Shown here: positions 26,132 through 28,009 of the stretch, one piece after another | Numbering within the stretch: position 1 is the first letter of the stretch | How the letters are laid out: every line of letters begins with the position of its first letter | From: an uncultured Planctomycetia bacterium | GTDB taxonomy: Bacteria; Omnitrophota; Gorgyraeia; Tantalellales; Tantalellaceae | DNA: 64,000 bases | Reading direction: 5' to 3' | Assembly (NCBI GenBank): GCA_964409365.1 | Contig: CAYPCX010000001.1 | Coordinates: 312,699-376,698, forward strand | The notes under the pieces: model-generated | Told to the model about the DNA's origin: nothing | Database searches by the model: none | What the model saw: only the letters and a program-made list of their open reading frames with translations | Translations under genes and position numbers: made by a program

Positions 26132-28009
26132 ATGCGAAAAGAAAATATCCTGATCATACTTTTTCTCCTTGCCGCGGCTGTTATCTGTTACCATAACGTC
26201 CTTGACGCCGATTTCGTGTGGGACGACGAATACCTGGTCGAGCTCAACCCTTCCGTAAGGGCGCCGTTATTGTCGTTATATCCGTTCAGGCAGGACATAA
26301 TAAGCTCGAACTTCATATACACGATATATTACCGCCCCATACAGATACTCAGTTATGCCGTCGATTACCGTCTGTGGGGCTTGAACCCCCTGGCGTTCCA
26401 TCTCTCGAACATCATGATCCATTTCCTTAACGGGCTGCTTGTTTTTATCCTTACCGGCAAACTGAGCGGGAAAAGGTCTGTTGCGCTCCTGGCGGCGCTT
26501 CTTTTCGTCATCCATCCCATGCACGTGGGGTCCGTTGCTTATATTTCGGGCCGCGCGGACCTTTTGTTCTTCCTGTTCGGTTTTCTTTTTATGCTTCTAT
26601 ATATCTTGTTCCGTGAAGGACGCGGCACTGTCTATCTCGCGGGAAGCGTTCTTTTTCTGATACTGTCGCTTCTCAGCAAAGAAGCGGCTTTGATCTTTCC
26701 TTTTCTCCTGGTTTTCATGGAAGCGATGCTGCTTGGGAAAAGGTTCGGCTTTCGCCCCTTGTATCATGTGCCGAACTTCCTTGTCGCCGGGGGGTACGCC
26801 GTCCTGCACCGGTCTATTTTCGGGGCGCGGTATCCGCTCCTGATGGGACAGGGAAGGATAGCCGAGGGATTATCGAGATATTTCATAATGGTAAGGGATT
26901 TTCTCGCGATAAGTGTTTTTCCCAGCGGTCTTCACATGAGAAGGGGATCGGGCGGATCCGGGACATGGCTGGTCTTCGCCCTCGTGATAGCGATAGCCGC
27001 GGCGCTCTTTTTTAATCTGAAGAAGAGTCGGCGGATGCTGGTGTTCTCGACCGGGTTCTTCCTCATAGGGCTTATCCCTTTTGTCTTCGTCGCGGGCTAT
27101 TTCGGGGTATTAGCGGAACACTGGATGTATCTGCCCAGTTACGGCGTTTTCCTTTTTATGTCCGTGGCCGCGATGGGATTTTTCGGGAAAAAAGAACTGG
27201 TACGGAAGGCGGCGGTAGCGGCCCTTGTCTTTGTGGCTGTTGTCTTCTATTCCTTGAACACCATGGTCCAGAGCATCTACTGGCATGACAATATATCATT
27301 GAGCGACAGAGTGCTTTCCTATTCGGACAAGGATATGCCGGCCATGCATTTCAAGGCCGTATCCCTTGTAAGAAAGGGCGAAAAAGCGAGCTCGGCAAAA
27401 GTTGTGGAAGAATACATCGAGACATATCCCCGCGACGCGAGAGCTTTGTACATAAAAGGCCGGATAGACCTTGCCGCCGACCGGCCGGACGCGGCCGAAC
27501 GGGCGTTCAAAAAAGCCGTGGAGATAGCCCCCGGGTACGATAACGGTTATTTCGGCCTGGCCTTGACGGAGTTCGTCAAAGAACGGCAGCGGGAAGGCAT
27601 AGATCTTCTGGAAAGGACGGTTTCGATCAATCCAAAGCATTCCGAAGCGCTGTTCCTTCTGGGGACCGCCTATTCCAGGATGGGAGAACATGAAAAGGCG
27701 CTGGGGGCGGCGGAAAGGGCTGTAGAAATAAGTCCTTATGATTACAACGTTCTTGTCAATCTGGGCACGGTATATGCCCGCAAGGGCGACCTGCAGAACG
27801 CTGCCAGGACCTATCTAAAAGCGGCCACGATGTATCCTGAAAGACCCGAGGCGCAATATGATCTTGCCTATACTTTTTACGTGGGGGGCCAGACCGGCGA
27901 GGCCGAGGTATGGCTGCGGAAAGCGCTGATGACAGATCCCTACTATAAACCCGCGATCAAGCTCATCCAGAAGATCAGAGAAGAAAAAACTGCGAAAAGC
28001 GGAACTTAA
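26132..28009 (+). CDS. Polytopic membrane protein with TMTC/PMT-like GT-C domain (DUF1736-type) and C-terminal TPR repeats
   Basis: FVWDDEYLVELN motif in first loop, about 11 TM helices, then about 6 TPR repeats (AERAFKKAVEIAPGY...); start at MRKENIL. Confidence 0.6.
   Translation: MRKENILIILFLLAAAVICYHNVLDADFVWDDEYLVELNPSVRAPLLSLYPFRQDIISSNFIYTIYYRPIQILSYAVDYRLWGLNPLAFHLSNIMIHFLNGLLVFILTGKLSGKRSVALLAALLFVIHPMHVGSVAYISGRADLLFFLFGFLFMLLYILFREGRGTVYLAGSVLFLILSLLSKEAALIFPFLLVFMEAMLLGKRFGFRPLYHVPNFLVAGGYAVLHRSIFGARYPLLMGQGRIAEGLSRYFIMVRDFLAISVFPSGLHMRRGSGGSGTWLVFALVIAIAAALFFNLKKSRRMLVFSTGFFLIGLIPFVFVAGYFGVLAEHWMYLPSYGVFLFMSVAAMGFFGKKELVRKAAVAALVFVAVVFYSLNTMVQSIYWHDNISLSDRVLSYSDKDMPAMHFKAVSLVRKGEKASSAKVVEEYIETYPRDARALYIKGRIDLAADRPDAAERAFKKAVEIAPGYDNGYFGLALTEFVKERQREGIDLLERTVSINPKHSEALFLLGTAYSRMGEHEKALGAAERAVEISPYDYNVLVNLGTVYARKGDLQNAARTYLKAATMYPERPEAQYDLAYTFYVGGQTGEAEVWLRKALMTDPYYKPAIKLIQKIREEKTAKSGT

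Follow-up and report, generated by a model that had tools for sequence, protein, structure and literature searches.

Some Pseudomonas aeruginosa strains (group IV strains Pa5196 and PA7) glycosylate their pilin with TfpW (AAM52060.1), a 646-aa GT-C glycosyltransferase that has 11 transmembrane (TM) helices, a cytoplasmic N-terminus, and C-terminal periplasmic tetratricopeptide repeats (TPRs). TfpW depends on a DDx motif in its first periplasmic loop, and its best structural template is ArnT. Its gene lies immediately 3′ of pilA and is necessary and sufficient for adding O-linked D-arabinofuranose (D-Araf) oligomers to pilin Thr64/Thr66, and homologues occur 3′ of pilA in several genera (bioRxiv 10.1101/2020.04.19.049825). 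Here we describe a gene of the same general layout, which lies between the major pilin gene and pilMNOPQ in a 64,000-bp stretch of DNA from an uncultured Omnitrophota bacterium (GCA_964409365.1, contig CAYPCX010000001.1, positions 312,699 to 376,698). We call this whole stretch the window, and all positions are counted from its first base.

Two further pieces of background matter for what follows. Pilin-accessory cassettes are known to carry a Rho-independent terminator after the pilin gene, which attenuates expression of the accessory gene behind it (PMC11841053). The eukaryotic proteins TMTC1–4 (GT-C/PMT clan) also have 11 TM helices, with DUF1736 corresponding to a lumenal TM7–TM8 loop that contains a non-membrane helix, followed by non-cytoplasmic TPRs. 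They share seven motifs, M1 to M7 (DD, SHKSYRP, RxD, KE(T/Q)xxT, DW, PxxP, and ERxxY), of which the M5 Asp has been modelled as a metal ligand and M1 has counterparts in ArnT (D55/E56) and Pmt1 (D77/E78) (PMC7801869).

On balance, we favour the reading that the window gene encodes a TfpW-like, pilus-dedicated O-glycosyltransferase of the PMT_2/TMTC type, with a GT-C_A fold, which decorates a pilus protein, most likely the major pilin; we hold this with a little more confidence than doubt. The ground for it is the fold, the motifs, the predicted topology, and the conserved gene placement, and from these we infer catalytic activity, a lipid-linked donor, a pilin acceptor, and O-linkage.

We assign the membrane domain to the GT-C_A fold and the PMT_2/TMTC type of enzyme, an assignment supported by hidden Markov model (HMM) matches of an orthologue and of homologues, by the fold, and by motifs and topology. 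Searched in isolation against Pfam and NCBIfam, the TM domain gave no glycosyltransferase match, only noise, even at E ≤ 10. It also gave zero matches to PDB sequences, both with phmmer and with hmmsearch using a 32-sequence profile, and a full-length profile found only TPR proteins there. Among 32 homologous TM domains, however, five match PMT_2 (PF13231; best E-value 1.4e-9), two match PMT (PF02366), and two match TMTC_DUF1736 (PF08409). The orthologue P0005, which is 51–53% identical to the window protein, also matches PMT_2 (an unmarked match).

The full-length AlphaFold2 model, made with the homologue alignment, has a predicted local distance difference test (pLDDT) score of 94.7 and a predicted template modelling (pTM) score of 0.93, and a TM-only model reaches 91.2 and 0.92. 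Foldseek results for the full-length model were swamped by TPR structures. With the TM-only model, the top 30 matches are all GT-C enzymes (probability 0.9–1.0): STT3 (from the yeast, dog, and human oligosaccharyltransferase), PglB, Pmt4, ArnT, DPY19, AftD, Pmt1/2, and EmbB, with the best TMq being 0.59 (STT3) at an E-value of about 1e-5. Transporters appear in the list only at probability ≤0.2, and we rejected a transporter identity on fold. An O-antigen-ligase-like identity (PglL/TfpO) was also rejected, given no Wzy_C match and no WaaL-like structure in the Foldseek list.

AlphaFold helices and the positive-inside rule together predict 11 TM helices, with the N-terminus in, the C-terminus out, and short cytoplasmic loops that all carry K/R. 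A further helix (residues 243–262), which has four charged residues, is amphipathic and lies within the TM7–TM8 loop. The first periplasmic loop contains the motif F28-V-W-D31-D32-E33. The original prediction, made from the sequence alone, had described an FxWDDE-type motif in this loop, about 11 TM helices, and about six TPRs, and each of these features is present.

Across 75 homologues, D31, D32, P69, P129, P264, and Y333 are identical, and Y67, R68, H90, H97, R141, K183, E184, E329, and W384 are nearly invariant. Under the predicted topology, the conserved residues all map within or at the edge of periplasmic loops, giving a periplasm-facing set of D31, D32, Y67-R68-P69, R141/D143, K183-E184, P264/R270, P316, and E329-H-W-x-Y333. 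The DD and YRP, RxD, KE, and E-H-W-x-Y motifs are distributed over loops EL1, EL2, EL3, and EL5. This is a very large family, with 143,721 representative clusters matched by the TM profile at E ≤ 1e-3 and 70,512 at E ≤ 1e-30.

The original prediction had also placed the protein in the DUF1736/TMTC family. Fold, topology, five of the seven TMTC motifs, and the orthologue matches agree with that placement, whereas the protein's own TM domain lacks an HMM match. The HMM search proposed as a check therefore had a split outcome, i.e., TPR families are found in the protein itself, but PMT_2 and DUF1736 are found only in some homologues.

The tail forms 14 helices, or about 6.5 TPRs, with Pfam TPR matches over residues ~405–620 (E-values down to 5e-23). 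Foldseek and PDB matches show that it resembles the superhelices of OGT and CTPR proteins. Residues of the tail that are invariant in the orthogroup include Y440, G443, R444, Y568, and P569.

One predicted active-site position differs from the model enzymes. Position 270, in EL4, is Arg in 40/40 pil-linked orthologues and in 0/35 paralogues, 23 of which have E/D. By loop position, R270 matches the predicted metal-binding D of the TMTC M5 motif (DW) and the HEH motif of ArnT, and the M5 region here reads L-H-M-R270-R. Judging from the alignment, this Arg could mean metal-independent phosphate binding in the pil-linked clade. The swap does not look like a loss of function, because all other active-site residues are invariant. 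An Arg-for-acid swap at a predicted metal site is also a specific lead for GT-C enzymology.

The same position bears on a quite different reading, that the protein is a catalytically dead GT-C relic kept as a membrane-anchored TPR adaptor. The fixed Arg, at a site where most paralogues keep the acid, would fit such a relic, as would the failure to reach any Pfam glycosyltransferase model. We nevertheless consider it highly improbable: D31, D32, R68, P69, R141, K183, E184, P264, and Y333 are invariant or nearly so at 37–61% identity, which indicates a maintained active site, and Arg could replace the metal in phosphate binding.

As for the acceptor, the major pilin would be the most likely one, because of the TfpW precedent, the pilin–terminator–enzyme cassette, and the short distance that separates the gene from pilin paralogues in related genomes. 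Cleavage of the prepilin is expected after G11 (GKGG|FTLVEIM), giving a mature pilin of 103 aa with four Cys. Seventeen orthologous pilins have 69% column identity apart from one variable loop, a hypervariable S/T/G/A-rich stretch at precursor residues 65–75 (mature residues 54–64). The column of S69 in the window pilin is S/T in 14 of the 17, the position of the loop is comparable to Thr64/Thr66 of the Pa5196 pilin, and pilins of divergent lineages end in S/T-rich tails. The S/T-rich loop and tails are suggestive only, as hints to where an acceptor site might lie.

We propose the following mechanism. A polyprenyl-phosphate-linked sugar would be made in the cytoplasm by enzymes encoded outside the window, flipped to the periplasmic leaflet, and bound in a groove that the 11 TM helices form. 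The catalytic Asp (D31/D32) would come from the first periplasmic loop, and K183, E184, R141, R270, and E329/Y333 would line the phosphate and sugar site; by analogy, the conserved K183, R141, R270, and Y333 are suited to binding phosphate. The superhelix of about 6.5 TPRs, sitting above the active site in the periplasm, would hold the protein acceptor, presumably the globular head of a major pilin still anchored in the inner membrane. Ser/Thr residues would then be O-glycosylated ahead of pilin polymerisation by the PilB/PilC/PilMNOPQ machine, with the variable S/T-rich loop (mature residues 54–64) as the candidate site. The strong pilin terminator would keep the enzyme level far below the pilin level, as in known pilin-accessory cassettes.

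Features of the locus are listed in the table below. The glycosyltransferase open reading frame (26132–28009, + strand) begins 130 bp past the pilin gene and encodes 625 aa from its ATG: a short basic N-terminus, a hydrophobic helix, the sequence ADFVWDDEYLV, a very hydrophobic part of 385 residues, and a soluble tail of ~240 residues. This ATG is at the position where 40 close orthologues start (pattern M..R.EN.LIIL). It competes with an alternative TTG start at 26096, which has GGGAG 6 nt ahead of it and would give 637 aa; a 637-aa protein with 100% identity is on record from JGI metagenomes (P0001). We found 272 homologues at E ≤ 1e-3. The majority bear the label ‘tetratricopeptide repeat protein [Candidatus Omnitrophota bacterium]’, which assigns the window to an Omnitrophota genome.

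The hairpin that separates the two genes folds at −27.1 kcal/mol (z −6.1), with 0/200 shuffles folding as well. A hairpin with a T-run lies 3′ of the major pilin gene in 16 of 18 related loci, its sequence differing between loci. On the other side of the glycosyltransferase gene, the pilM–pilQ block (28222–32820) matches Pfam PilM_2, PilN, PilO, T2SSB, and Secretin. The original prediction had placed the gene directly after a pilin gene and its terminator in an otherwise canonical pilus locus, and prepilin, terminator, and pilM to pilQ could all be identified. An Rfam scan of the whole window gave no match, and a search of the 64-kb window for a second copy (paralogue) of the protein found none.

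Table. Features of the pilus locus, in window coordinates.
Feature	Position	Strand	Basis or remark
pilT-like ATPase	19293-20360	+	block matches Pfam T2SSE
Stand-alone MshEN-domain protein	20367-20813	+	Pfam MshEN
Two tandem PilB-like ATPases	20822-22537, 22534-24252	+	Pfam T2SSE; each with N-terminal MshEN
pilC	24260-25480	+	Pfam T2SSF
Major prepilin	25657-26001	+	114 aa; Pfam N_methyl and NCBIfam PilA/GspG/ComGC N-terminal matches; GFTLVEIM
Rho-independent terminator after pilin gene	26022-26063	+	20-bp stem including A/U-tract pairing, then T9
GT-C/TPR glycosyltransferase gene (predicted)	26132-28009	+	translation, homologues, full-length AlphaFold model
GT-C_A catalytic membrane domain, residues 1-385	26132-27286	+	Foldseek, invariant columns, topology
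D31 and D32 codons, DD motif of first periplasmic loop	26222-26227	+	75/75 invariant; predicted catalytic acid
R270 codon	26939-26941	+	EL4, alignment column comparison
Periplasmic TPR domain, residues 387-624	27290-28003	+	Pfam TPR, AlphaFold helices, Foldseek
pilM	28222-29241	+	Pfam PilM_2
pilN	29290-29937	+	Pfam PilN
pilO	29937-30578	+	Pfam PilO
pilP-like	30523-30933	+	member of pilMNOPQ block
pilQ secretin	30991-32820	+	Pfam Secretin
Probable minor-pilin/PilX-like cluster	35149-41654	+	beyond pilQ, past DUF2344 and RNase G

To see whether the placement holds in relatives, we sampled five orthologue look-ups plus a scan of GTDB species genomes, which was seeded with the 40 close orthologues; the loci were analysed by tblastn with the window pil proteins, and orthologue-level loci are those with at least 37% identity. 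The original prediction had named co-occurrence with pilin genes in related genomes as a check, and placement in the pil locus proved to be conserved across Omnitrophota: pilM is directly 3′ of the orthologue in 21 of the 22 loci that extend far enough, and a pilin is 5′ of it in 17 of ~23. A role in pilus-related glycosylation is a reasonable inference from this placement.

In many relatives there is also a second or third pilin paralogue; the window has one pilin gene. These paralogues share 45–65% identity with the major pilin and contain a loop of the ‘WAVWEG’ type, and in several relatives one of them stops just 8–9 bp 5′ of the GT-C gene (L001 6646–6993, L002 6621–6992, L022 7645–7986, and others). 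In one locus (L003 8860–9276), the GT-C/TPR gene and pilM are separated by a small gene with an RF-1 domain (peptidyl-tRNA hydrolase-like).

Some 55 further loci hold paralogues of 25–31% identity, often several per genome and in tandem arrays, and in most of them no pil gene is nearby. Tandem arrays with two to four GT-C/TPR paralogues, all away from pilus genes, occur on contigs of Omnitrophota, Verrucomicrobiota, and Nitrospirae (L025, L026, L030, L033, L034, L041, L042, L044, L050, L060, and L085), which points to strong lineage-specific expansion of the family. Distant copies (26–31% identity) nevertheless lie inside the pilus loci of divergent Omnitrophota (L029, L055, L083, L032, and L048), where the order is pilC, pilin(s), one or two GT-C/TPR genes, three minor pilins, and pilM. 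The association with pilus loci must be an old one, confined to certain clades within the family, since orthologues are pil-linked, divergent copies are again found in pilus loci, and most paralogues are elsewhere.

A separate observation concerns a Verrucomicrobiae open reading frame (L082 14621–15463), in which a C-terminal globular module of the pilin type described here (CINNLRQIDAAK...CPSGGTYTINAVGVLPTCSVPGHVLP) is fused to a long, coiled-coil-like, Q-rich N-terminal region in place of the prepilin helix.

Several results weigh against a pilin-modifying glycosyltransferase. The protein itself lacks any glycosyltransferase match in Pfam or NCBIfam and any PDB sequence match, even by profile. 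The predicted metal-binding acid of EL4 has become Arg in all 40 orthologues, so catalysis may differ from that of the model enzymes. The 64-kb window contains no donor-synthesis genes (GT2 polyprenyl-phosphate glycosyltransferase, GtrA, or DprE1/2). Linkage to pilMNOPQ is tighter than linkage to the pilin: six orthologue loci have no nearby pilin (L003, L004, L008, L010, L059, and L073), yet pilMNOPQ follows, and their 5′ genes are unrelated (e.g., the fatty-acid genes plsX-fabH-fabD), with pilin and pilBC elsewhere. The gene thus stays beside pilMNOPQ when the pilin is elsewhere, and the assembly machine may be what the enzyme acts on or docks to. The single exception to pilM adjacency, in Ca. 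Omnitrophus magneticus (L024), is an orthologue without pil genes. A metagenome scan seeded with PilM returned only four loci, too few for a real frequency; three have a GT-C/TPR gene just 5′ of pilM, and the fourth (L089 328–2499) reads pilin-pilin-pilM without one, so the gene is not universal in the pilus locus. Finally, a truncated DUF2344 gene and RNase G (window 33065–35043) lie 3′ of pilQ almost throughout, in the divergent loci too. Gene order is thus conserved beyond functional units, which weakens synteny as a sign of function.

The tight linkage to pilMNOPQ could mean that the enzyme serves the pilus machine, i.e., that it glycosylates PilQ, PilP, PilN/O, or minor pilins, and/or that its TPR part is a secretin assembly factor like PilF, PilW, and Tgl, the TPR lipoproteins of other type IVa systems. 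We regard this as unlikely. It would account for the place of the orthologue directly 5′ of pilMNOPQ in 21 of 22 loci, the six with pilin and pilBC elsewhere among them. It would also suit the many orthogroup-invariant TPR residues, which imply a fixed partner, and no separate pilF/tgl-like gene was found in the window. The TPR part has sub-threshold NCBIfam matches to PilW (TIGR02521, 56.6 bits), Tgl (32.7 bits), and GltE, but the PilW and Tgl scores fall far short of the respective cut-offs of 154 and 225 bits, as general likeness between TPRs would give, and the best PDB matches do not include PilF or PilW. The pilotins known so far are lipoproteins of the outer membrane, whereas the TPRs here are tethered to an 11-TM inner-membrane domain, and divergent lineages place the gene by pilins, with minor pilins intervening before pilM. 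A purely scaffolding role would leave the invariant catalytic residues of the TM domain unexplained, and we rejected a pure pilotin reading because these active-site residues are invariant.

A bolder reading would make the protein a fixed, machine-integrated pilus component in Omnitrophota and not a pilin accessory that varies between strains: co-inherited with pilMNOPQ, docked by its TPRs on the alignment/secretin complex, and glycosylating pilins or PilQ at assembly with a metal-independent site that uses R270 in place of the acidic metal ligand of TMTC and ArnT. This is speculative and, in our judgement, improbable. If true, it would be the first substrate assignment for a clade of a huge, almost uncharacterised bacterial TMTC-like family.

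Conserved gene order around pilQ raises another alternative, that of a general envelope glycosyltransferase whose locus is merely inherited. Such an enzyme would O-glycosylate a broad range of periplasmic proteins, or would modify lipid A or another glycan in the manner of ArnT. It would accord with the enormous size of the family, with its expansion in Omnitrophota (often as tandem arrays without pil genes), with the unrelated DUF2344 and rng genes keeping their place after pilQ, and with the presence of ArnT, a lipid A modifier, among the structural matches. It would also fit the intergenic gaps of 100–640 bp ahead of pilM and, in the window, a hairpin 3′ of the GT-C/TPR gene with a promoter-like site before pilM. 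We nevertheless doubt this alternative. A single orthogroup is pil-linked among many paralogues per genome, and a second clade, 26–31% identical, is again found in rearranged pilus loci, which is hard to explain by inertia alone. The coupling of a pilin paralogue within 8–9 bp in several relatives also argues against it, and those GT-C enzymes with TPR tails that have known acceptors (TMTC, TfpW) act on proteins.

Beyond pilQ, the cluster at 35149–41654 probably encodes minor pilins or PilX/PilY-like tip proteins of the same pilus. It comprises a prepilin-like gene with an N_methyl motif (35149–35565), a 763-aa protein with a weak prepilin N-terminus (35580–37871), and three tandem paralogous proteins of ~400 aa without a Pfam family (37868–39127, 39124–40326, and 40488–41654). 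The ~400-aa paralogues resemble genes that lie between the GT-C gene and pilM in two of the divergent loci (L029 and L083).

Upstream of the pilus genes is a HAMP-GGDEF diguanylate cyclase (17860–19269), and the block 17860–24252 is conserved in relatives. The GGDEF protein, together with the MshEN proteins and the MshEN-bearing PilBs, suggests control of pilus extension by cyclic di-GMP. Elsewhere in the window, the open reading frame at 48849–50780 (− strand) is the longest in its stretch, but we rejected it: it has no family match, an odd composition, and is antisense to a helicase gene. The real gene there, at 48870–50762 (+ strand), encodes a 630-aa Mfd/TRCF-like helicase with UvrB_inter, CarD_TRCF_RID, DEAD, and Helicase_C domains.

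More than 140,000 representative clusters belong to the bacterial TMTC/PMT_2-like GT-C proteins with TPR tails, and nearly all carry only the annotation ‘tetratricopeptide repeat protein’. To our knowledge, TfpW is essentially the sole member of this bacterial GT-C/TPR architecture with a known acceptor. An orthogroup locked to pil genes across a phylum offers a concrete, testable acceptor hypothesis for one clade and suggests pilus glycosylation as a standing feature of Omnitrophota. Omnitrophota are ultra-small and probably host-dependent or predatory, so their pili are likely central to cell–cell contact, and pili are common phage receptors.

How, then, does the protein compare with known systems? 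PilF, PilW, and Tgl resemble it in having about six periplasmic TPRs and a tie to a pilQ-containing system, but they are outer-membrane lipoproteins without a catalytic domain, and the N-terminus of the window protein is TM1 of a polytopic domain. PglL and TfpO (PilO) are, like the proposed enzyme, polytopic inner-membrane proteins that glycosylate pilin in the periplasm, and tfpO also lies right after pilA. They have an unrelated Wzy_C/O-antigen-ligase-like fold, however, and transfer preassembled oligosaccharides from undecaprenyl diphosphate.

ArnT, PglB/STT3, and the PMTs share the GT-C_A fold (TMq 0.46–0.59, probability 1.0) and the catalytic acid of EL1. Their sequence similarity to the window protein is undetectable by HMMER, and in place of TPRs they have the ArnT, PglB, or MIR periplasmic domains. 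ArnT acts on lipid A, while PglB/STT3 transfer oligosaccharides to Asn.

TMTC1–4, which are protein O-mannosyltransferases, are closer: 11 TM helices are followed by TPRs in both, and the window protein also has an amphipathic helix in the TM7–TM8 loop. Five of the seven TMTC motifs are recognisable, i.e., M1 (DD), M2 (only as YRP), M3 (R141-A-D143), M4 (K183-E184), and M7 (as E329-H-W-M-Y333), whereas M5 (DW) has become LHMRR and M6 (PxxP) is reduced to P316 alone. In a bacterial host, the donor cannot be dolichyl-phosphate-mannose, and the acceptor is presumably a pilus protein rather than a cadherin.

TfpW is the direct precedent. By its published description, it resembles the window protein in length (646 vs 625 aa), 11 TM helices, the DDx motif of loop 1, periplasmic TPRs, and a gene position after the pilin, and its template ArnT is among the Foldseek matches of the window TM domain. 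The two are not identical in detail. The TfpW loop 4 proline motif, Y-x6-P-F-x7-P, is matched here only in part, by F309-x6-P316-F317 without the final P (paralogues have W/F-x6-P-x5-P). TfpW uses a D-Araf donor, and the 64-kb window has no D-Araf biosynthesis genes. The window pilin belongs to a small type (103 aa, four Cys) unlike that of the TfpW system. The tfpW gene travels with pilA as a strain-variable cassette, whereas the window gene is fixed between pilin and pilMNOPQ across the phylum. A tblastn search of plasmids, aimed at relatives with an annotation or at a pilA-tfpW cassette, produced matches to the TPR region only.

With TfpW, it is already known that a GT-C/TPR enzyme whose gene follows pilA glycosylates pilin, and there is no new principle here. 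The original prediction, drawing a contrast with PglL and TfpO, had called a GT-C/TMTC-type enzyme at this place an unusual solution; its fold, family type, and pilus association hold up, and the pilin glycosylation role is plausible, but its claim to novelty was overstated given TfpW. As far as published descriptions allow a comparison, the window gene is like TfpW in architecture, position, and regulation.

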